NCBI GenBank assembly: GCA_963835065.1
Contig: CAWIEK010000011.1
Span: forward strand, 105,145-169,144
From: an uncultured Chthonomonadaceae bacterium
Lineage (GTDB): Bacteria; Armatimonadota; Chthonomonadetes; Chthonomonadales; Chthonomonadaceae
Reading direction: 5' to 3'
Length of the DNA stretch: 64,000 bases
Position 1 is the stretch's first letter, and the number at the start of each line of letters is the position of its first letter. The notes under the pieces were generated by a model, which was given only the letters and a program-made list of their open reading frames with translations, had not been told where the DNA came from and did not search any database. The position numbers and the translations under genes were made by a program. Of the stretch, positions 1,034 to 18,359 are shown piece after piece.

Positions 1034-2089
1034 TTGTTACCCATGAGCATTGCCCGTCGTGCCAATGCAGAAACAGAAAAGAGCAGAGTTATGCTAAATA
1101 TGGAGCCTTACGAAGTAGATATGTGGCCTTGCGTGGCGAAATTGTTGGCGCAATGGAAATACATGCCGTATGCGCAAAGTCGCTATGGAGTGGCGGCAGC
1201 GACATCGTTATGGTTGGAGCGGACGGAGAAGGTTCTTGGTAATTCATCCGCACAAGCGCTGGTGGCGATGGACGCGGACGCGCCCATTGGTTTGGGCGTC
1301 CTGACGCCGCTGCCCTGGGATGGCGAGCAGATCGGCATGGCGGCGGCGCGGCTGGACTGCTTAATCGCAAGCGGCGATTATACGCGGCGGCATGACATTC
1401 TTGATATGCTGATTGCGCGACTGGTGACGGAAGCGGAGCGGCAGAACATTCGTCATCTGAGCGCGCGCATTGACGCCGGCAACCTTGCCGCCACTCATGC
1501 TTTGGAACAAGCGGGTTTGCAGATGATGGACGGCTTGCTCACGTTTGCGCTGGATTTAACGACTGCGCCCCTACCGGAAAATGCCAACGCGCAGCCCGCA
1601 CAGGAACGCTCATTCCACTTGCGGCTGGCGACGGCGGAAGATGCGGAACGGGCGGGGCAATTGGCCTACGGCGCGTATCAGCATGACCGCTTTCATGCCG
1701 ACCCCGCTATTGCGCCGGAAAAGGCGGACGCGCTTCATGCCTGCTGGGTGCGCAATGCGTGTCGCGGGCATGCGGCGGATGGGGTTATTCTGGCCGAAGA
1801 AGGAAACGAACTGCTCGGTTTTGTCACCTGCAAACTGCATCGGGACGCGCAGGCGCATTTCGGCGCGGCAACGGGAACCATCGCGCTTGTCGCTGTCGCA
1901 GAAGCGGCGCGTGGCTTCGGCATAGGGCGGGCAATGACAATGGAAGCCCTGCGCTGGATGCGGGGGCAGGGCGTGGAACTGGCGGAAGTCGGCACACAGA
2001 TAAGCAACATCAGCGCAAGCCGCCTGTATGAGCAATGCGGGTTTCGGCTGGCCGGCAGCAGCCTGACGTTTCACAAGCTGCTGATTTGA
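1034..2089 (+). CDS. Tandem GNAT acetyltransferase, WecD/RffC (dTDP-fucosamine acetyltransferase)-like
   Basis: HDRFHADP motif; acetyl-CoA motif RGFGIG; GTQISNISASRLYEQCGF; polysaccharide-locus context. Start may be ATG 1091. Confidence 0.8.
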   Translation: MLPMSIARRANAETEKSRVMLNMEPYEVDMWPCVAKLLAQWKYMPYAQSRYGVAAATSLWLERTEKVLGNSSAQALVAMDADAPIGLGVLTPLPWDGEQIGMAAARLDCLIASGDYTRRHDILDMLIARLVTEAERQNIRHLSARIDAGNLAATHALEQAGLQMMDGLLTFALDLTTAPLPENANAQPAQERSFHLRLATAEDAERAGQLAYGAYQHDRFHADPAIAPEKADALHACWVRNACRGHAADGVILAEEGNELLGFVTCKLHRDAQAHFGAATGTIALVAVAEAARGFGIGRAMTMEALRWMRGQGVELAEVGTQISNISASRLYEQCGFRLAGSSLTFHKLLI

Positions 2090-3775: not shown

Positions 3776-6700
3776 GCGATGTCATGCCCTTAGAGGATTC
3801 GATGAATGGCGGCGTTTCGGTGGAATCGTTATGCGAACGCCTGCTTAATCTGCCTGAATCGGCAGAGCGCGACGCGCTGCTGCAAGAAGCCGCCGGACTG
3901 CCGGATTGCCTGCCGTATCTGCTGCAATCAGCGCGCGAGCGGATGAATGGCGACACGACGGGAACGCTGCTGCGGGCGCGTCTTGCCGCCGCGCTTGCGG
4001 AACGGAGCGAGGATGGGACAGGCGGGGCGCAGGCATGGCGCGTAATTGGACAGGCTTTGCGCGTTCAGGGCGACCATACGAATGCGGTGACGGCGCTGGA
4101 AACGGCTGCTTCCTGTGCCATGCAGTCGGGTGACGCTCGGCTGGCCGCGCAGGTGCAGATTGGGCGTATTGACTCGCTGAACTGGCTTGGGCGCTACGAC
4201 GACGCGGTTCTGCTGGCTCGGCGTCTGGAAACCGAACTGCGCGCGCATGGCGAGGAAACGGATGCCGCCAAAGTCCTCGTGAATTTAGGCGCGCTGCACT
4301 ATCGGCGCGATCAGTACGCGCTTGCCCTGTCCTGCTACGAGCGCGCCCTGCAAACGCTGGAGCAAAGCGGCGAAGTGGTGGCTTGCGCCACCGTGCAGAC
4401 CAACATCGCTGCCGCGCTGATGGAACTGCATCGCGTGGACGAGGCGATTGCGCTTTTTGAGCAGGCGCGCGCCACGTTCGCCGCGCATGAATTGCTCACG
4501 CCCGCCGCCAAAGTGGATGCCAATGTCGGCTTTCTGCACTATCTTTCGGGACGCTACGCGCAGGCGATTGCCGCCCTGCTGCGGGCGCGCGAGGAGTTTA
4601 CGGCGCGGGGGCAAACGCTGGAAGCGGCCAAGTGCGACGCGGATGTGGCCGAATCCTACCGGGAACTAAATCTGTATCCCGAAGCCAGCGAAGCGTATGC
4701 CCGCGCTTCCCGCGAACTGGAATCCTTCGGCGTCGGCTACGAGCGCGCCCGCGTTGAATTGGGCCGCGCCGCCGTATCCATCGCGCAGGAACAGTTTGCG
4801 GACGCGCTGGCAAGTCTGGAAACGGCGGATTCGCTGTTTGCCGCGCACCGCAACGTGACCCAACAGGCGCGCGTCCGCCTGCTCCGCGCCCGCCTGCTGC
4901 GACAGGAAGGACGCCATGACGAAGCCATACAGGAGGCAAAGCGCGCGGCGCGAACCCTGACGCGCAGCGGCCTGCGCGGTTGGGCGGCGGAAGCGCGCCT
5001 GCTGCTGGCGGAAATGGCGGGCGAGGAGGGGAACGACGCAGTTCGCTCCCTGCATACGGTTCGGAACACGGCGCGGACAACGGCGCGCGGCTGGCTGGAA
5101 GCACAGGCGGAGCGCGCGCTTGGACGCCATTACCTGCGCAAAGGCAATGTGGGGCGCGGCCTGCGCCATTTGAAAGACAGCGTACAGGCGTTGGAGCAGG
5201 CGCGTACCCTGATTGCTCCCGAAGAGATGCACGTCTCGTTTTTGCGGGACAAACTGGCGATTTATGAGGAAACAGTGGGCGCGTTGCTGGCGCGCGGACG
5301 CAGGCAGGACATTGCGGATGCGCTGGAATACGTGGAGCGAGCAAAATCCCGTCTGCTCTTGGAACGGGTACAGGCCGCGCTGGACAGCCGCGCTCCTGCC
5401 GAGACCTACGCTGCCATCCCCAGCCCGCGAGCGATTGGCGACCCTACGCTCCGAACTGAGCCGAAGTTATCAAAAGCTGAATGTTGTGGATGAAAGCGAA
5501 GCGCGGCGTATCGGCGCGGCAGGGATTGCGGAAACGTCTGCCCTCAACGCGCTGGAACAGGAATATGCGGATGTGCTGCGCAAAGCAGAACGGACGTCTC
5601 ACGCTGCTTCCGGCCTGTTCAGCCTGCCCGACGTGGTTCCCACACAAGATTTGTCCGACCGGCTGCAAAGTAACGAAGCCTTGTTGGTATACTACACCGT
5701 TGGCGGGATGGTTTGCGCGTGGATTGTCACGCGGCAGGAAGTGCATTTCCGCGCCAACATCGCCGATCTGGAAGACGTCAGCCACGCCGCCCGCCGCCTG
5801 CGCTATCAATTGCAGCGCGTCGGGTGGGACGGTGAACTTTCGCAGCGACACGCGCTTCGGTTTCAGGCGGACGCGCAGGAAGTTCTCGCGCGGCTGTACG
5901 ACCTGCTGCTGCGCCCTATCACCGATTTGCTCACGAGGGAACACCTGGTTGTCGTTCCCCATGCCGAATTGCACGGCCTGCCGTTTCATGCGTTTTTTGA
6001 CGGCGCGCAGCCGGCGCTGGATCGCTGGGAAATCAGCTATGCGCCGAGCGCGGCTTTGTGGCACCGGGGCGCAATCCGGCAGCAGGCGGGCGGGGAAAGC
6101 GTCGCAAATTGGGCAGATGCGGAAGCTTTGCTTGTCAGCGTGCCGTCGCCCGGTATCGCGCAGGTAACGCGGGAAGTGGCGGCGTTGGCGCATTTATTGC
6201 CCCATGCCTGCGTTCTGCATGGCGAAGCGGCCACGCTCCGGGCGGTGCAGGCGCGCGCCGGGAATTGCCGCCTGCTGCACCTGGCGACCCACGCTTTGTA
6301 CCGCGCCGACAACCCTTTATTCTCCGGCTTGCAGTTGGCGGATGGCTGGCTGCTTGCGCGCGACCTGTACGCGATGCGCCTGCCCTGCGACCTGGCAACG
6401 CTGTCCGCCTGCCAAACCGGGGCGGCGCAGGTGGAATGTGGAGACGAGTTATTCGGACTGGTGCGCGGGTTTCTGGCGGCGGGCGTCCGATCCGTAGCCG
6501 CGAGTTTATGGCCCGCCGACGATCAGGCGACGGCGGCCTTGATGCAGGAATTTTATCCGCGTCTGTTGCAGGGGCAATCGAAAGCGGCGGCTTTGCGGGG
6601 CGCGCAGCAGGCGATGCGCCTTCGGTTCCCACACCCTTACCATTGGGCGGCCTTCGCGCTCATTGGCGAACGCGGCAACAGCGTTTCCGCGCCTGCCTGA
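3772..6700 (+). CDS. TPR + CHAT (caspase-like) protease; split by one frameshift near 5420 (probable sequencing error)
   Basis: ORF 3772..5493 carries TPRs and ERAKSR; ORF 5213..6700 carries the CHAT motifs LHGLPF, HLATHA, LSACQTG, ASLW, HPYHWAAF. Confidence 0.88.
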
Positions 6701-6826
6701 CTATCGCTCAGGACATACGCAAACCGGCGCAGCAGGAAAACATACAAAAAGATACACGGGTTAAAACCGCCGGAACAAAGGCGTCCGGCAGGGAACGCGC
6801 AGCAAGGAAAGATAGGAATAGCAATC

Positions 6827-8074
6827 ATGAAACAGGCTTCGATAACACAACATGCGAAAGGCAAGACTGTCCTGAAACTGCTGACCGCCGTATTTGCTTT
6901 GCTCACGATGTTCGGTGTGCGCGCCAAAGCGGACGACATCGTTGCCGGGCACGTTCTGGTACGGGTTGCGACCGGCGTAGACATTCGCGTTCTGGCGGCA
7001 AGTTACAATACCACCGCGCAGGATCAGGTTCCCGGAACCGACCTGTACAGTGTCGCCACGCCGCGCGGCACGAGTGAAACGCAGTTTGCCCAGAATTTGA
7101 GCAAGGACAAGCGCGTTCTGTATGCCGAGCCGGACCGTCTCATTATTTCCCCCGAAGTCGGCGGCAGTCCGTTTCATCTGGCGTTCGACTTCACGCCACA
7201 GCCGACTACGTATGTCAACTCCGTCAGCTATACGCAGGTGAATTTAGGGCAGGTGGACGCGCTGCATCAGATCAACGGGAGCCGCCCATTAGCGACGGGC
7301 TACGGCGTTGTCGTGGCGGTGCTGGATACGGGCGCGACGTTCACGCACCCGGATTTGCAGGGGCACTACCTGGTCGGCTACAACGCGCTTGCGCCCGATA
7401 CGCTTCCCCTGGACATCGCCGATGGCGCGACTAACGCGGAAGTGGGGCACGGCACGATGGTTGCGGGCGTGATTGCCCGTCTCGCGCCCCAGGCCGCCAT
7501 TCTGCCCATTCGCGTTCTCAACGGCGACGGCACCGGAACCCTGCTGAATTTGGTGAAAGGCATCCACTACGCGAACACGCACGGCGCGCGCATCATCAAC
7601 ATGAGTTTTGGCTGCTCGGTGAAATCCGGCGCGCTCAATGACGCCCTCGACGAGTCGGAACTGGCGGGCATCGTGCTGGTTGCCGCCGCGGGTAACAACA
7701 ATCTCAATCAGGCGCTCCCGCCTACGGTCAGCCGGGGAACCATTGCCGTCGCCGCCGTCGAGGGGGACAACACGAAAAGCCCGTATTCCAATTATGGCTC
7801 CTTTGTGCGCGTGGTTGCGCCCGGAAGCAACATTCGCAGCACGTATGCGGATGGCGGGTACGCAACCTGGTCGGGAACGTCGTTCGCCGCGCCGTTCGTT
7901 GCCGCCGAAGCCGCGCTGATTCTGTCCGTATCCCCGTCTCTGACCGCCGATCAAGTAAAAGACTACATCCGCTCCACCGCCCGCTCGGTAGACAATCAAA
8001 ACAAAGCCTACAAAGGGCAGCTTGGCAAGGGAATCATTGACATTGAATCCGCCGTGAAAGCGGCGCATCCCTAA
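6827..8074 (+). CDS. Secreted subtilase (peptidase S8) with propeptide
   Basis: Signal peptide; catalytic triad motifs VLDTG, GHGTMVAG, SGTSFAAP. Confidence 0.95.
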   Translation: MKQASITQHAKGKTVLKLLTAVFALLTMFGVRAKADDIVAGHVLVRVATGVDIRVLAASYNTTAQDQVPGTDLYSVATPRGTSETQFAQNLSKDKRVLYAEPDRLIISPEVGGSPFHLAFDFTPQPTTYVNSVSYTQVNLGQVDALHQINGSRPLATGYGVVVAVLDTGATFTHPDLQGHYLVGYNALAPDTLPLDIADGATNAEVGHGTMVAGVIARLAPQAAILPIRVLNGDGTGTLLNLVKGIHYANTHGARIINMSFGCSVKSGALNDALDESELAGIVLVAAAGNNNLNQALPPTVSRGTIAVAAVEGDNTKSPYSNYGSFVRVVAPGSNIRSTYADGGYATWSGTSFAAPFVAAEAALILSVSPSLTADQVKDYIRSTARSVDNQNKAYKGQLGKGIIDIESAVKAAHP

Positions 8075-8101
8075 ACGCACTATGATACGGACTTTTCATC
8101 C

Positions 8102-8292
8102 CAATATCGTTCAAATAAGAGTTCGTAGGGGCGTGATTCATCACGCCCGCAACGTACCGCATTCCGCAAAGGGCGCAACATATTGGAGGATGCAGGCGCA
8201 AGCATGGCAGAGGGCGTAAGCATGGCAGAGGGCGCAAGCATGGGAGGGCGCAATAAATTGCGCCCCTACGAACTTTTCTTTGAACTTGTTTT
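8102..8292. repeat. GTAG-type REP/MITE-like element with internal 18-nt tandem repeats
   Basis: GTAGGGGCG...CGCCCCTAC palindromes; its 31-nt end matches the reverse complement of 28045..28075 with one mismatch; ggcgcaagcatggcaga-like unit x3. Confidence 0.7.
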
Positions 8293-8296
8293 GAGT

Positions 8297-8332
8297 AAAA
8301 GCCGGGCTGGTGAACAGTCCGGCTTTTGTTTT
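8297..8332 (+). terminator. Intrinsic terminator (probably bidirectional)
   Basis: aaaagccgggctg-gtgaa-cagtccggctttt hairpin followed by T-rich sequence. Confidence 0.6.
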
Positions 8333-8507
8333 GCCGAATTTTGGCGCTTTACAGAAAAATATGTGGAAAAAGACCGCGAAAACTCTGCCTTGATGTATCA
8401 AAACCGGTTTGGCGTTCCTCTCCTGTCACGAAGAGCGCGCAGAACAAGATTAAGGTTCTGCAAGCCACACAGATTACTGTTCATTTCTCAGGAGGATTGA
8501 TTTCGCT

Positions 8508-9329
8508 ATGAAAGTTGTTACCACCATTTCCGCGCTGATTGCATCCCTGTCTGCGTTTGCCGCGTTCAACGCCGCGCCCGTCCGCGCCGATGTGACGGAT
8601 CGCCTGTATGACTTCACCGACGCCTACTACGCGCAGAACGGCATTAATCCCGCCAAACTCGCGGGGCGCAAGCAGGCTCCGTCCGCCAACGCCGTGATTG
8701 ACAAGCCCTTCTTTGCCTCGCAGCGCAATGTGCGCGTGATCGGCCTGGGCGGAACCTACACGGCCAACGGCTCCGTCGCCTACTTTGCGGTGATGGCGGG
8801 TTTCGGACCGGACGGCTTTACCAATGACGCAGCCGGGCAGCGCGCCCACCAGATCGCGGACACCTACATCGAATACATCTTCCCGCAGCGTAACGCCGAT
8901 CCGATAGGACTCGCCAATGCGCGGCAGGCTACGGTACAGGATACCGATCACGGGTATTTCAGCAACGATCCGCTCGGCCTGTGGCTGCACGTCTGGGTCA
9001 ACTACACGGATGCCGCCTTCAGCACCAAAGACGGCCAGAAGGCGCTGTCCGATCTGGCAAAGAAGAACGGGCTGGCGCTGGACGGCACACCGATTATCAA
9101 GACGACGAGCGACATTCAGAACTTGAACAGCAAGGGTTTTGTCACCCTGCGCACCCGCAATGACGGCCTGCGCTACGCCGTCTGCCCCGAAATCCGAGAC
9201 CCGCGCCGGGGCGGTATTTCCCCCGAGGCCTTCCTCAACACGGCACACAAGCCGGACGGCTCGCCGCTCGATTTCGCCTTCACCGTCAACTTCGACAGTC
9301 TCAAAAACACAGGCGAATGGGCGCGGTAG
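8508..9329 (+). CDS. Secreted hypothetical protein
   Basis: AGGAGG RBS, Sec signal peptide ending VRA-D, strong codon bias. Confidence 0.8.
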   Translation: MKVVTTISALIASLSAFAAFNAAPVRADVTDRLYDFTDAYYAQNGINPAKLAGRKQAPSANAVIDKPFFASQRNVRVIGLGGTYTANGSVAYFAVMAGFGPDGFTNDAAGQRAHQIADTYIEYIFPQRNADPIGLANARQATVQDTDHGYFSNDPLGLWLHVWVNYTDAAFSTKDGQKALSDLAKKNGLALDGTPIIKTTSDIQNLNSKGFVTLRTRNDGLRYAVCPEIRDPRRGGISPEAFLNTAHKPDGSPLDFAFTVNFDSLKNTGEWAR

Positions 9330-9546
9330 TACACGGCGGCATAAATATGCCTGCATAACCGGATTATAAAAATCCCGTTTGCAGGCATGCGACCAATCGT
9401 CCTAAAGACGAAAGAACTACCGGCGTATTTACGCCGTGATCTACTAAAAGGCTGGCGCATCGTCCTATTCAAAGTGCCCTGCGCAGACAGCGAAGGAGTA
9501 AAATTGTTGGCGGTTGAGTACAGCGCCTTGTTCGGCGGCGGGTACG

Positions 9547-9903
9547 TTATGCCTGAGGTTTGCGGATTCGCAAGACTCCGGGAGAAATAACCGTAAAAGC
9601 GTTTGGCATTTCTGCGCCATGTTCCTCCAGGACTTTGGATACGGTAGCGGCCTTCGTTAAAGACGCGAACCCCATAAGCCGGAGCAGAATGACGCCCCTA
9701 TGCACCAGCCGCTGCCGGTAAACAAGTTCGCCAAAATCTTTATCTTCAGTGACAAGCAATGCGCTATGCTCGTTGGCTCGCTGCAAAACAACTTCATCGG
9801 TGATGCCCGGTTCCATTTCCGCCACGTACAAGACATTGTGACTGTCGCGCCGCAGCCTTTCCACAACTTGCCTGTCAACACCTTCATCTGCCAGTAAATT
9901 CAT
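9547..9903 (-). CDS. DUF5615 PIN-like toxin
   Basis: LLADE, D..VL..A, LVTEDKDFGEL, GVILLR motifs; overlaps the DUF433 gene. Confidence 0.9.
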   Translation of the reverse strand: MNLLADEGVDRQVVERLRRDSHNVLYVAEMEPGITDEVVLQRANEHSALLVTEDKDFGELVYRQRLVHRGVILLRLMGFASLTKAATVSKVLEEHGAEMPNAFTVISPGVLRIRKPQA

Positions 9904-10148
9904 GCCGCTTGCTCAACCAGAGGGTAAATAACATCGGCCCGCAACGCTCGAGCGGCGAAGGCGACGGATGCCAGAACTGCCTGATGCGTGAGGCGCGGAT
10001 GCGCCGCCACAATTTGTTCGGCTGTTTCGCCCGCGCCTAACCGCTCTAAAATAGATTCAACTGTGATGCGCGTACCAACAATGACGGGCTTCCCCATCAT
10101 AATGTGTGGGTCTGATTGAATCGGTGAAGTGTCCATGTTTGCCTCCAT
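9900..10148 (-). CDS. DUF433 antitoxin
   Basis: DP.IM.GKPVI.GTRITV motif; start may be ATG 10136 (GGAGG RBS). Confidence 0.92.
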   Translation of the reverse strand: MEANMDTSPIQSDPHIMMGKPVIVGTRITVESILERLGAGETAEQIVAAHPRLTHQAVLASVAFAARALRADVIYPLVEQAA

Positions 10149-10241
10149 ATCTCATTATACCGCCTTTGGCGCTGTCGGTTCTTGCCAAATTGCACACCCT
10201 CTGCGAACGAGCCTGACAACGGCGGGCAATATCGCTTGCTT

Positions 10242-11363
10242 CTAAACAGGAGAAGCCGCGTGCGGCTTCTCTATTGCACCGGAGCGTTCAGCTACAGTCT
10301 GTGCGTTCTCTAGCGGTTTGACGATACAACGATCTATAACTCTTGGATCATCGGGGTTTTTTGGCACACGGACAATCGCGGCAAACTCTCTATCCCCTAC
10401 AGGTCTGCCGTCCTTATCCTTGATGTTGTAAAGTTCCTCCCAACACTCGGCCAGGTATTTCCCCGCTCCTTCTGTTCCATCTGCGCCAACGCCCGCGATG
10501 ATGACCCAAGTTTTCTCATGAATATCACTCCCCGTCGGATGAAATTTGAGAATTATGCCATAATCGTTTATGGTGTCGTCTTTGTACTCCCGCAACTCAT
10601 TCACTGGCTTATACTTGGGACAGTCCCAATCCGGGTTTTTCAGTGTAAGATGCCCGCCTACAGGAGCATCATATTCCTTCTCGAAGAACTCTTCTGCTCC
10701 TCTTCTTAGACTAGAATCAGTGAAGTAGTTGGAGAATAGCCCGAACATTATCAGGTTGCTGTCTCGCCCTTTCATTTCTATGAGGTCAGTATCTGTCAGA
10801 ATTTCAGGTGTTTCTTGTGACATCTCGCCTATTAAAGCAGCTACATAACCTAACGCCTTCAAATCCTGCAAAGCTGCCGTTTCCGTGTGGTCGAAACTCA
10901 CATTCTTTAATGCTGAGTTAGGCCGTTCACGAACTTTTTGCGAACGAAAGAAAGGCAAACAGTTGTGAATCGAAAGCTGAAACAGGCCAGTTTGATGAAG
11001 TGGAACGGGTGTCCTACCAGGAGAAGGCATTTGAGACGTAGGGATGGTGGGCACAGGTACAAACTCCGGGAAGATAAGGCGAACCTTACCCGGCGCGAAA
11101 CGCCCAAAGAACATCTGCCTGAACATCCGCCGCCTTTTGAACATGGGTACGAAATCGAGCAACAGAACTACCAACTCAAAGGTGGCAGCGGTGAGCAAAG
11201 CTATAAATATACTGTAGAAGGGTTGCTGAATCGGCTTGCAAAGTGACAATCCCACGCCGCCCAACACTGCCGCGCCAAGCAATGCAAAGAAGCGGCTCTT
11301 CCCAAACCGTGAGCGTTTTAAGTCTTCCAACAGTATCCGCAACTTCATTGCCATCCCTGCCAT
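10242..11363 (-). CDS. Hypothetical protein with two N-terminal transmembrane helices and a soluble alpha/beta domain
   Basis: 373-aa ORF, visibly lower GC than its flanks; NLIMFG..SN, DYGII, IIAG...GT.GA motifs. Confidence 0.7.
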   Translation of the reverse strand: MAGMAMKLRILLEDLKRSRFGKSRFFALLGAAVLGGVGLSLCKPIQQPFYSIFIALLTAATFELVVLLLDFVPMFKRRRMFRQMFFGRFAPGKVRLIFPEFVPVPTIPTSQMPSPGRTPVPLHQTGLFQLSIHNCLPFFRSQKVRERPNSALKNVSFDHTETAALQDLKALGYVAALIGEMSQETPEILTDTDLIEMKGRDSNLIMFGLFSNYFTDSSLRRGAEEFFEKEYDAPVGGHLTLKNPDWDCPKYKPVNELREYKDDTINDYGIILKFHPTGSDIHEKTWVIIAGVGADGTEGAGKYLAECWEELYNIKDKDGRPVGDREFAAIVRVPKNPDDPRVIDRCIVKPLENAQTVAERSGAIEKPHAASPV

Positions 11364-11728
11364 TCACAAAAGTAAGAGTGTGTTCTAATACGCGACATGT
11401 TGCATTGTAGCTGAACTAAGAATTTTGCCGCACCTGTGCAGCAAAACCCCAATTCCGCCTGCAAAAAAGCGCAAAATTGTAGTCTTTACCTGAAATTGCG
11501 TCTTGCGACGTAACAGGCCATGTTTTGCGGCAAAAGCCGTATTTTAGACATGTACGCGCTAATATCTCTCTTATTTTAACATAAAGGTTACGTAGTGTCA
11601 ATATCTACCCTTGAGACAAATTACGCCTTCGTTCGTGATGTTATGTATTCCCAACTCCTCTGTTTCGGCATAGAGTAAACGCATTTTGGCATCATTCGCT
11701 TTACGTCAAGTTCTACAGGAGTACATGA

Positions 11729-15557: not shown

Positions 15558-15752
15558 GCGCAAAGGATGAAGGCGGAAGGAGGAAGGATGAAAATCAATT
15601 CCTTCTTCCGCTTCCTGTCCCAAAAAAACGCCCCGCTTTCCTTATATGGAAGGCGGGGCGTTGTGCTTGACGCGCCATAGAAAATTCGTTGCAATGAAAC
15701 AGGAGCGATGAAAATTTGTCTTGTTTGATGCGGTTGCGGAGGCTGTTGAGCG

Positions 15753-16088
15753 ATGGATAAAATAAATGAGTATGTGCAGATCGTGAAGCGCGTGATACAG
15801 GATGTGGCGGACTATGTGCCCGAAGAAGAAGGCGTTCGCAAGGAAGTTATCTTTGATGACGCTTCCGGGCATTACCAACTGCTGCAAACCGGCTGGAAGA
15901 ACCGCCGCCGGGTTCACGGCACACTGGTTCACATTGACGTGCGCGATGACAAAGTATGGGTAGAACACGACGGCACGAACTTAGAGATAGTGCAGGATTT
16001 ACTGGACGCGGGCATTCCGCAAGAACAAATCGTGCTTGGCTTTCACGCCCCCGAACTGCGGCAGTTTACCGAGTTCGCTCCCGCTTGA
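15753..16088 (+). CDS. xisI: XisI family protein
   Basis: IFD...HYQL...GW....RVHG..VHID....KVW.EHDGT..., IVLGFH.P..R..T.FA. Confidence 0.92.
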   Translation: MDKINEYVQIVKRVIQDVADYVPEEEGVRKEVIFDDASGHYQLLQTGWKNRRRVHGTLVHIDVRDDKVWVEHDGTNLEIVQDLLDAGIPQEQIVLGFHAPELRQFTEFAPA

Positions 16089-16322
16089 ACGCGCCTGGGG
16101 TCAGGCTTTGAAACCGAACAGGAACTCTGTTGCCCGCAGCCGCTTCCGTTAGCCGGTAAGGCAAAAACAGCGTATTGTACCGCGTTTTCAACACAGTGAG
16201 CAGGAGAAAAGTTGCGCGGCGTGGAAACAATCCGCACAAGCAAGCGCGAACTAATCCTGACGCTCACTTGTTTCTTGAACCGGGCGTCCGTTGATTTTGT
16301 CTGTAAAGGTTAGCCGCATCCT

Positions 16323-17702
16323 ATGAGCCACGATTCTGAGCGTTTTCCATCCGAACTTGCCCACATTTTGTTCATGGACATTGTAGGCTATTCCCTGCTG
16401 CTCATAAACGACCAGAGGCGTGTGGTCGCCATGCTGCAAAGCCTTGTGCGCAATGCCCCGGAGTTCCAGCACGCGCAAGCAGCGGGCAGAGTAATCTCCT
16501 CAGATACAGGAGATGGATTGGCGCTGGTGTTCTTCGGCGACCCGACCTCACCGGTGTATTGCGCGGTGGAGATCGCCCGCGCGTTGCGTGAAAAGCCTGA
16601 ACTACAGTTGCGCATGGGCATCAACAGCGGTCTGGTGTCGCGCACAACCGACTTTAACGGCCATGATAAAGTCACCGGCAGTGGTATCAATATGGCGCAG
16701 CGGGTGATGGATTGTGGAAACGCGGGGCATATCTTGCTGTCGCACGATTGCGCAAAAATCATGCGTCAATTCAGCGAGTGGGCCAACGCGCTTCACGACC
16801 TGGGCGAGTATCAAATCAAACATGACCTCACCCTGCGCCTGTACAATCTGTGCATGGAGCAGGTTGGCAATCCCGCCCCGTCGCAAGCCACACCAAAAAG
16901 CGCGCCCCCTGCAAACGCGCCAAAGAACGGCAATCCGCCCGGGACAGGCGGTGCAGCGAAGCAAAATGCCGGTATGGAAAGCGGCACAGAAAGCAAGACA
17001 AAAACCAACTCGGCGGATGGCGCGGAAATGGCGTGGATACCAGCGGGAACCTTCCAGATGGGCGGGAACGGTGAATACGACGGCAAGCCGGTTCATTCGG
17101 TGACATTGTCAGGTTTCTGGATGTACAAAACGCCGGTGACAGTGGCGCAGTTCCGCACGTACGATGCAGCGAACGGAAGCAAGTACGACTGGACGAAGAA
17201 CAAACCGGATTGGGGTTGGCTGGACGAGCATCCGATGGTAAATGTCTCCTGGACAGAGGCCTCGGCGTATGCGCAGTGGGCGGGCGTCGTGCTGCCGACA
17301 GAGGCGCAATGGGAATATGCGGCGCGGGGCGGTTTTGCGGGGAAGAACTATCCCTGGGGCGATGATTGGGACGGGAGCAAATGCGCCAATTCCGTCAAGC
17401 CGAATGACTTGAAGGGCACAAAAGCAGTCAAGAGTTACGCAGAGAATGGCTGGGGCCTGTATGATATGGCGGGCAACGTGTGGCAGTGGTGCGCGGACTG
17501 GTACGACAAAGCCTACTACCAGACAGCGGCGGCCAGCCAGACCGACCCAAGAGGGGCGAGTTCGGGCACATTCCGCGTCCTGCGGGGCGGTTCTTGGGGC
17601 GGCGATTCCGAGACCTACTTCCGCTGCGCGGACCGCGACTACTACATTCCCGACGACTGGAACGGCATTATCGGGTTTCGTTGCTGTTCTCCAGGACTGT
17701 AA
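16323..17702 (+). CDS. Class III adenylate/guanylate cyclase fused to an FGE-sulfatase (CLec-fold) domain; probable DGR target
   Basis: Cyclase: FMDIVGYS, TGDG, LRMGINSG, GINMAQRVMD. FGE domain: F.MG, PVTVAQF, LPTEAQWEYAARGG, GLYDMAGNVWQW, RVLRGGSW...GFRC. Confidence 0.92.
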   Translation: MSHDSERFPSELAHILFMDIVGYSLLLINDQRRVVAMLQSLVRNAPEFQHAQAAGRVISSDTGDGLALVFFGDPTSPVYCAVEIARALREKPELQLRMGINSGLVSRTTDFNGHDKVTGSGINMAQRVMDCGNAGHILLSHDCAKIMRQFSEWANALHDLGEYQIKHDLTLRLYNLCMEQVGNPAPSQATPKSAPPANAPKNGNPPGTGGAAKQNAGMESGTESKTKTNSADGAEMAWIPAGTFQMGGNGEYDGKPVHSVTLSGFWMYKTPVTVAQFRTYDAANGSKYDWTKNKPDWGWLDEHPMVNVSWTEASAYAQWAGVVLPTEAQWEYAARGGFAGKNYPWGDDWDGSKCANSVKPNDLKGTKAVKSYAENGWGLYDMAGNVWQWCADWYDKAYYQTAAASQTDPRGASSGTFRVLRGGSWGGDSETYFRCADRDYYIPDDWNGIIGFRCCSPGL

Positions 17703-17771
17703 TGCTAACCATTTAACCTTTTACTCTTTTACTCTTTATTCTTTCAAGCCGGCAAAGCCGACTTGAAGAAT
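17574..17771 (+). other. Putative DGR variable region, IMH and downstream hairpin
   Basis: 22 of the 25 codons between GGSW and GFR end in C/T and none ends in A; pyrimidine-rich ttttactc repeats; stem-loop at 17738..17771. Confidence 0.7.
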
Positions 17772-17853
17772 CGAATTTTGAAAATTTGACGTTGTTTCAG
17801 AGTAAAGCCGAATTTTCTTTTCGCGCCGCTATGGGAAGGCAGGAATCAACGCT

Positions 17854-17979
17854 GTGGCTGGCGAAGTAAGCGCTGTTACGAAAACGTATGAGTTTTTGCT
17901 CTGGCTCCTCCCGCAAATCGCCCGCTTTCCCCGCGATCATCGCTTCACGTTGCAACGGCGGCGTATTCGGCGGTTGTAA
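17854..17979 (+). pseudogene. avd: Truncated DGR accessory variability determinant (Avd), N-terminal ~33 aa only
   Basis: Not in the ORF track. GTG-start frame reads MAGEVSAVTKTYEFLLWLLPQIARFPRDHRFTL, the typical Avd N-terminus; similarity stops at ~17952. Confidence 0.8.
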
Positions 17980-18024
17980 CCCTCGTTCCCGGATGCTCTC
18001 GCTCTTGCCGGACTTCGATACTGT

Positions 18025-18255
18025 TTAGGTTGCGCTTGCAGCGAGTTCGCAAGCAGTCTTTGGTAACAGTTCAACATCCGAGGCGTAAACGATGCTATGA
18101 TCTTCGTGCCACTCTGTTACAACCGTGATTTTGATCTCATCACCGTTGTTCGCTTCGTGGCAGAGACGCTGAAACAAAGTTTCGTCCGGCACGTTCACCT
18201 TCTGCGTGAACAATCGGTTTCCACCTTTGTAGCGTGTTTTCTTCTCATACAGCAA
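18025..18255 (-). CDS. Small hypothetical protein (beta-rich; true start may lie further upstream)
   Basis: Protein-like 76-aa ORF co-oriented with the GNAT/TPR genes; frame stays open upstream to ~18375. Confidence 0.45.
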   Translation of the reverse strand: MLYEKKTRYKGGNRLFTQKVNVPDETLFQRLCHEANNGDEIKITVVTEWHEDHSIVYASDVELLPKTACELAASAT

Positions 18256-18359
18256 TGCAGGCAGATTGCCGGGTAACAGACCAAGAAGCGCTGCCTGTAT
18301 CGTTGCTTTCGTCGTTTCCGTCAGTCCAAAATACTGTATTCCTGTTATTTTGTCTTCCC

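Follow-up and report, generated by a model that had tools for sequence, protein, structure and literature searches.

The 64,000-nucleotide stretch of DNA analysed here (the window) belongs to an uncultured Chthonomonadaceae bacterium of the phylum Armatimonadota (GenBank assembly GCA_963835065.1, contig CAWIEK010000011.1, positions 105,145 to 169,144; G000:C11:105145-169144 under our own handles). The host assembly comprises 8.0 Mb in 71 contigs and is 91.9% complete. Within the window, an intact gene joins a nucleotide cyclase domain of class III to a CLec (C-type lectin) domain of the formylglycine-generating enzyme (FGE) type, and is followed by a hairpin and the beginning of avd, a gene of diversity-generating retroelements (DGRs). 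The initial annotation of the window had described the fusion gene and its end, both of which we confirmed; the gene lies at 16323-17702. The features of the locus are as follows.

16323..17702, plus strand: cyclase-CLec fusion gene, 459 amino acids, frame intact (open reading frame, Pfam)
16350..16880, plus strand: class III nucleotide cyclase domain, about residues 10-186 (weak Pfam match to Guanylate_cyc, PF00211, E 2.8e-5; model, fold matches and alignments)
16881..17003, plus strand: linker rich in Pro, Ala and Gly (DNA similarity to an in-genome cyclase paralog on contig C54 ends at its start)
17004..17699, plus strand: FGE-type CLec domain (strong Pfam match to FGE-sulfatase, PF03781, E 8e-56; model and tree)
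17598..17672, plus strand: core of the variable region (VR), 25 codons between GGSW and GFR (codon counts, template and clade comparisons)
17673..17699, plus strand: constant 3' end of the VR, by its position a putative counterpart of the initiation of mutagenic homing site (near-identical in the relative from genome G020)
17703..17737, plus strand: pyrimidine-rich spacer (same place as the post-VR spacer in intact Armatimonadota cassettes)
17738..17771, plus strand: hairpin, 3-nt loop AAA, with a single stem mismatch and a single bulge (folding)
17854..17952, plus strand: avd stub, codons 1-33 (Avd profile matches, alignment)
17953..17979, plus strand: continuation of the stub's frame for eight unrelated codons, with the stop ending at 17979
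16089..16322, no strand: left part of a lineage-specific block (comparison with congeners)
15753..16088, plus strand: xisI, the left flank, syntenic in congeners G001 and G002
18025..18330, minus strand: small convergent gene without a Pfam match, the right flank

The fusion protein forms a singleton cluster. Scans of this locus turned up neither a promoter excess nor a terminator at the hairpin, and nothing from Rfam above threshold.

The lectin tail and the cassette remains

The CLec domain was modelled with a pLDDT of 87.4, and its fold matches that of FGE as well as that of TvpA, a DGR variable protein from Treponema (E 6e-17). A true formylglycine-generating enzyme was rejected because the catalytic cysteine pair is absent: aligned to the Streptomyces FGE, both catalytic cysteines after RGGS are replaced. 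The initial annotation had singled out the codons between GGSW and GFR, and our counts agree with it in that 22 of the 25 end in C or T, three in G, and none in A. This bias is significant relative to the gene's own first 421 codons, 47.7% of which end in C or T (P = 3e-5). Given the encoded amino acids, 19.0 such codons would be expected and the excess is marginal (P = 0.044), so the signal mostly reflects amino-acid choice. Other FGE-type tails have 12-23 of 25 codons ending in C or T. The codon count alone is modest evidence for a VR.

Comparison with relatives is much more informative about the tail. In a quick tree of 73 CLec domains, built with the VR excluded, the domain groups with five Ser/Thr kinase-CLec proteins in a clade of six (SH-aLRT 98). 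Across this clade, pairwise identity is 25/210 (12%) at the 14 codons that carry adenines in template repeats (TRs), as compared with 89/105 (85%) at seven fixed codons and 61% in the scaffold. Residues that cannot be reached from AAY codons (K, E, Q, M, and W) occupy only 2 of 84 variable sites versus 22.8% of the scaffold. At an E-value of 1e-8 or better, 27 of 401 phylum genomes contain an Avd match, and TRs from these genomes share the frame of this tail. Against the best of six 25-codon Armatimonadota TRs, differences fall at 18 of 30 adenines versus 4 of 20 other positions (p = 0.005). By sequence comparison, we identify the gene tail as a DGR variable region and the clade pattern as a DGR signature. 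Pairs within protein clusters showed no variation focused on the VR.

The hairpin proposed in the initial annotation was borne out by folding. As DNA, a 51-nt piece containing it folds with z = -3.69, and none of 200 shuffles did as well, while a wider piece of 171 nt is not special (z = -0.56). The hairpin lies ~40 nt after the stop codon, as in intact relatives. Its loop is AAA, whereas several relatives have GAA and others differ again. The loop sequence is critical in BPP-1 (PMC3240598), and GRA hairpin loops are reported in archaeal DGRs (PMC4372165; here and below, a cited paper stands for the excerpts of it that were used).

The frame starting with GTG at 17854, earlier described as a truncated avd, matches positions 3-33 of the 104 in NCBIfam NF033474 (Avd) with an E-value of 9.4e-7, scoring 29 bits against a cut-off of 80. 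The Pfam bAvd model gives an E-value of 0.009, and avd similarity stops at codon 33. Of 17 full Avds, the five nearest have 17-22 of the stub's 33 residues in common with it, a range similar to the 15-23 of 33 that intact Avds share with each other, and we consider the truncated avd genuine. Only 5 of 33 residues are identical to the genome's three other four-helix-bundle proteins, for which reason we rejected a 23S rRNA IVP-like four-helix bundle. The stub retains 11 of 12 invariant Avd residues and has no stop. When neutral decay was simulated, a stub this intact remained in 2.4% of cases at 0.2 changes per site and in 0.06% at 0.38. Having barely decayed, the stub indicates that the loss of avd was recent.

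It is scarcely credible that the truncation is an assembly error. Several genes of the host assembly carry frameshifts, and no independent contig bridges the junction near 17953, as such an error might have it. However, the remainder of avd is in no frame at the locus and nowhere in the assembly. Past the junction, the DNA belongs to the gene known from G002 as the neighbour of xisI, which leaves the block in native synteny at either end. The sole sequencing run found with pieces of host DNA was a soil metagenome with three near-exact 151-nt pieces, none of which lies over the VR or the avd-stub junction. No RNA dataset was listed as containing sequence of the locus.

We searched for the missing parts throughout the assembly, and absences are to be read against its 91.9% completeness. 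No full-length avd was found, as the Avd profile returned the stub and three weak, full-length IVP-like proteins. An exhaustive scan of the genome for a TR differing only at adenines gave a best VR match with 23 non-A mismatches in 117 nt, and the genome holds no TR-like Asn-rich motif. None of the three reverse transcriptase (RT) matches in the assembly is a DGR RT. Labelled by motifs and neighbours, one lies amid Cas-like genes, one is retron-like, and the third is a weak fragment. The two that are full fall with CRISPR/group II-like and retron-like RTs, and their identity to a DGR RT is 26-28%, versus 48-63% among DGR RTs. In the congeners G001 (97% complete) and G002 (80% complete), no Avd was found, and each has a single retron-like RT. 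Four loci came out of a motif scan across metagenome contigs (two copies of a target from G011 and two without a match to any DGR query), none with avd or RT; viral contigs returned none, and the matches listed for genome contigs were mostly distant FGE proteins. With RT, TR, and full Avd looked for and not found, the locus is not an active DGR, and its target is most likely frozen today.

Several side observations arose from these searches. The RT amid Cas-like genes lies with repeat-like DNA at G000:C49:678900-685400, and the retron-like RT (C50:52695-53327) is conserved in both congeners. Two further CLec genes of the host have VR-like ends and no avd, at G000:C54:126869-127575 (frameshifted) and C44:377558-378229. 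A tandem CLec array in another genome (L052, G014:C12, ~6000-11700) has a different VR-like end in each copy, in a genome that is 98% complete and in which no Avd was found.

These searches divide the earlier claims about the cassette. The loss of RT and TR stands, while a cut in place is only one possible reading: since the block is extra relative to the congeners, it may have arrived whole and then been trimmed, or have arrived as a partial copy. The initial annotation had tied its reading to an Avd match for the short frame and to a TR differing only at adenines; the first was found and the second was not. Its suggestion of diversification in trans is so far unsupported. In that scenario the gene would be a remote target that is still diversified, the block would be a partial cassette copy, and the full cassette would be unassembled or present in part of the population. 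Trans activity and mixtures of intact and degraded variants are reported in Thiohalocapsa PB-PSB1 (PMC10907252), the block is an addition relative to the congeners, the assembly lacks ~8% of the genome, and the cis elements survive for the most part. We nevertheless regard it as improbable given that no DGR RT, TR, or avd was found in the 8.0 Mb assembly or in the congeners, and that the stem of the hairpin is mismatched and its loop is AAA, in an element whose loop matters in BPP-1 and is reported as GRA in other DGRs.

Cassette order also required correction, as the initial annotation had taken avd-TR-RT as standard. Among the 15 Armatimonadota loci in which avd, RT, and TR are all visible, ten have avd-RT-TR, three have avd-TR-RT, and two are arranged otherwise. 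Four further Armatimonadota loci have avd and then only the front of RT. Partly deleted avd and RT genes in other loci indicate that DGR decay by deletion is common. At a Terriglobia locus (L290, G856:C184, ~7780-8060), a junction links avd residues 8-45 with the RT, which sets in midway at about residue 107, while TR and target remain. At L062 (G008:C115, ~1140-1510, minus strand), the front of a DGR RT runs into the last part of the TR with target and avd intact, one deletion having removed most of both RT and TR. At L215 (G203:C106, ~1276-1420), the TR core has 19 codons versus 25 in the VR, the template having lost six in a cassette that is otherwise complete.

The cyclase domain

The cyclase domain was modelled with a pLDDT of 92.6, and its fold matches class III cyclases (Rv1900c, E 2e-12, TM 0.72-0.79). 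The structure match to 3et6 has a Z score of 20.0 and an rmsd of 2.7 over 168 aligned residues. Overall, the model scored higher against purine cyclases (Z of 18-20) than against Pycsar cyclases (14-17). All 78 aligned family members share the two metal-binding aspartates (D19 and D64) and the Asn/Arg pair of the transition state (N123 and R127); the roles of these residues and the base-specifying positions of Ma1120, K101 and D157, are taken from PMC4215837. S60 and K116 occupy the positions of Ma1120 K101 and D157, with a one-residue alignment uncertainty at the first; at these two sites the cyclase family mostly has Leu and Asn. S60 and K116 match neither canonical pair, Lys/Asp for ATP or Glu/Cys for GTP. 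A cGMP-making Pucsar cyclase reads guanine via Glu and Lys at these sites (bioRxiv 10.64898/2026.08.12.744502). The product is probably a purine cyclic nucleotide monophosphate (cNMP). By analogy with the Pucsar cyclase, one might guess that K116, together with nearby D61, leans toward GTP and cGMP.

There is an outside chance that the cyclase is weak or dead, serving only as a dimerisation or nucleotide-binding module, or that the whole gene is a passenger being lost from a variable site. The non-canonical S60 and K116 would fit such a protein, conflict systems include cNMP cyclase domains that are inactive (PMC7159879), and the fusion is a singleton absent from the congeners. Nonetheless, the four catalytic residues are kept in an intact frame, and dN/dS is low in both the cyclase (0.25, against the C54 paralog) and the CLec domain (0.15, against the G020 relative).

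The host has at least six paralogs of this cyclase (G000: C7, C54, C57, C58, C60, and C68), several of which are fused to TIR-like and AAA_35 domains. Three of the in-genome paralogs look frameshifted, possibly through assembly errors. The cyclase-TIR-AAA_35 protein of C54 is 70% identical in amino acids and 75.7% in DNA, making it the nearest among 120 cyclase matches listed (≤ 59% for the others). The likeness in DNA stops at the cyclase domain boundary. Synonymous divergence (dS) between the two cyclases is 0.77; orthologs in the congeners have a dS of 0.3-0.83.

We also considered where a cyclic-nucleotide signal might go. There are 11 cNMP-binding-domain matches in the genome, none adjacent to the fusion gene, and these proteins could read the signal. 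The neighbours are xisI, the small gene without a Pfam match, and TPR and GNAT genes, with no adjacent gene for a cNMP-binding TIR or transmembrane effector. A Pycsar operon was therefore rejected. PADLOC returned no match at the locus.

History of the locus and related fusions

Comparison with the congeners delimits the block. In G002, groEL-xisH-xisI is followed by 32 bp and then the small convergent gene, whereas the host has ~1.93 kb (16089-18020) between xisI and that gene. G001 likewise has no block after xisI. No direct or inverted repeats of ≥ 6 nt were found at the block ends. On the left, 16238-16315 has a 91% identical counterpart on C44, immediately upstream of a transposase-like open reading frame, and 16173-16316 resembles an intergenic stretch of C23 at 74% identity. 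The likeness to C44 is a weak hint that a mobile element may have helped. Nearby, xisI lacks its xisH partner (window 15690-15753), which both congeners have after groEL, and a 7-nt tandem repeat after groEL (window 15560-15600) recurs at roughly a hundred intergenic sites genome-wide.

We favour the explanation, at a probability of roughly 0.55, that the gene is a former DGR target in which a cyclase was carried on a DGR-rewritten CLec domain, frozen by a cut in its cassette behind avd codon 33, and now a sensor of fixed specificity. In this history, an Armatimonadota kinase-CLec target would have lost its kinase and gained in its place a cyclase of the family to which the host's cyclase-TIR-AAA_35 proteins belong. 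The five kinase sisters, together with a cyclase close to an in-genome paralog, lead us to infer this domain swap, which is the simplest history. The fusion cassette would have landed between xisI and the small gene, with RT and TR lost later and the cut falling after avd codon 33. Class III cyclases need to form homodimers. The cytoplasmic protein would make cyclic nucleotide when the tip of its CLec domain binds a ligand, presumably because a ligand that clusters two CLec heads favours the cyclase homodimer. A past role as a diversifiable soluble receptor for defence, as first suggested, is plausible.

A competing explanation is that the cyclase was grafted on after the DGR died, with an orphan CLec domain recycled by domain shuffling and no cyclase-bearing protein ever hypermutated. 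In this family, VR-like CLec domains are often found as orphans behind a wide variety of N-termini, the cyclase family is itself joined to many unrelated partner domains, and the closest CLec relative is a kinase-CLec protein in a genome (G020) where no avd was found. Our failure to find a cyclase target in an intact DGR also fits a graft. We consider it unlikely on account of timing: the cyclase has diverged to a dS of 0.77 from its nearest known paralog under purifying selection, while the stub is little decayed. The fusion is therefore older than the loss of the cassette, at least probably, and provided that no closer donor was lost.

Searches for comparable fusions covered several groups. 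The same fusion was not found at full length in 40 relatives, nor in 400 phylum genomes, the latter being a weak search with at most four candidates scored per genome. No cyclase-CLec gene was found in an intact DGR in 300 Acidobacteriota genomes (query P0023), in 370 (P0367) and 340 (P0327) Terriglobia genomes with two to three candidates scored each, or in plasmids.

A number of points weigh against the history that we favour. There is no cognate TR to show an adenine-specific origin directly: none of the six TRs compared is cognate, and five of the six comparisons reach only p = 0.04-0.11. Variable and fixed columns in the clade analysis were picked from related TRs, with four mixed columns omitted. 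Neither base-specifying position of the cyclase is canonical, and K116 replaces an Asn that is near-invariant in the family, so reduced activity is also possible. Ligand gating and a role in defence are predictions, and there is neither an adjacent effector gene nor a PADLOC match. The timing assumes the C54 lineage as donor, and a closer donor may have been lost or left unassembled in a 71-contig assembly of this completeness. Finally, the searches of the phylum, Acidobacteriota, Terriglobia, and plasmids found no cyclase-CLec gene beside an intact DGR.

Proteins of similar architecture do occur elsewhere. Cyclase-FGE architectures make up at least five Atlas clusters, and 20 of 386 collected proteins, this one included, pair the cyclase family with an FGE tail. 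Another cyclase-FGE family, to which P0050, P0062, P0065, P0066, and P0250 belong, keeps its C-terminal tail constant and seems to be a receptor without diversification. In P0050, P0062, and P0066 the tail is constant while 28-61 other positions differ, and the cyclase-FGE architecture alone therefore does not imply a DGR. P0050 and P0065 are distant from this CLec domain in the tree. In contrast, VR-like tails are present in P0026 (cyclase-transmembrane-CLec, with a VR frame of the Armatimonadota type), P0367 (cyclase-NACHT-CLec), and P0327/P0038 (kinase-cyclase-CLec). The NACHT-CLec part of P0367 is 41-60% identical to Terriglobia proteins, several of which are in target-avd-RT cassettes. 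In four of seven Terriglobia genomes matched, these relatives precede avd and RT, with other N-termini.

A wider and distinctly tentative proposal is that DGRs have repeatedly diversified ligand-gated nucleotide cyclases, in which a hypervariable lectin tip controls the synthesis of cNMP, possibly cGMP, and of which this locus would be a recently frozen member. If true, such proteins would constitute an undescribed class of soluble receptor, with P0026, P0367, and P0327/P0038 as independent members, some perhaps active.

Comparison with known systems

Degenerate DGR loci have already been published, and what is apparently new here is the combination with a cyclase. A literature search returned no paper linking diversity-generating retroelements with guanylate cyclase as a target protein. 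The word cyclase does not occur in the searched text and nine supplements of PMC10907252, nor in the searched parts of PMC8144416 and its supplements apart from files 9 and 12. A cyclase target was likewise not found in the searched parts of PMC5758913 with one supplement, or in those of PMC11661182. The locus is a recently orphaned DGR target with an effector domain apparently unreported for DGRs. Second-messenger synthesis would join the known outputs (kinase, protease, TIR, and STAND), and a small soluble protein of two domains with a measurable cyclic-nucleotide output is a convenient test of an effector gated by its tip. STAND-linked CLec domains are reported to be without experimental characterisation (PMC10907252). 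The finding carries limited weight: it concerns a single gene, from a single metagenome assembly, whose diversification has most likely ended and whose function is predicted.

The closest cassettes are the intact Armatimonadota DGRs (G203:C106, G033:C13, G370:C351, and others), which share the VR frame, spacer, hairpin position, and Avd subfamily. They differ in keeping avd, RT, and TR, and in having no cyclase in the targets found beside them. Class III purine cyclases (Rv1900c, CyaB, and Ma1120) and Pycsar/Pucsar cyclases share the fold and the catalytic Asp/Asp/Asn/Arg, and Pucsar PucC has a lysine, K195, at the second base-reading site (bioRxiv 10.64898/2026.08.12.744502). In Pycsar and Pucsar a cNMP-binding effector stands beside the cyclase, unlike here, and the S60/K116 pair sets this protein apart from both canonical pairs.

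Cyanobacterial DGR proteins (Vallota-Eastman et al. 2020, PMC7517822) similarly carry a signalling domain, in most cases a Ser/Thr kinase, on a C-terminal CLec domain and include dispersed paralogs, recalling the kinase-CLec sisters found here. Their remote targets differ in having the TR present in the genome. The excerpts give no cNMP cyclase target, though the CLec list has seven diguanylate cyclase entries and the count table one cyclase annotation. In FGS conflict systems (Kaur et al. 2020, PMC7159879; Kaur et al. 2021, PMC8195603), FGS/CLec is a proposed DGR-linked sensor of invaders and cNMP cyclases are recurrent modules. One Gemmata massiliana protein even joins a nucleotide cyclase, FGS, TRADD-N, and caspase; its FGS is not C-terminal, and no VR is claimed for it in the excerpts. 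These systems also have MoxR-vWA, STAND, and EAD partners, none of which is at this locus.

Thiohalocapsa PB-PSB1 (Dore et al. 2024, PMC10907252) offers the nearest parallel in design, having C-terminal FGE-type CLec domains with a VR, swapped N-terminal effectors, loci without RT or TR, and a proposed role as sensors. It differs in that its genome has a complete cassette of each class, whereas none was found here. Its listed target domains are vWA, NACHT, nSTAND1, CHAT, TIR, kinase, and cAMP phosphodiesterase. Other Armatimonadota RTs are in the clade 5 tables of the same work, although the locus itself has no RT by which to place it in a clade. DGR-diversified CLec domains are proposed to be antigen sensors (PMC10907252), and by analogy the cyclase-CLec protein may work like a CLec sensor of the clade 5 type.

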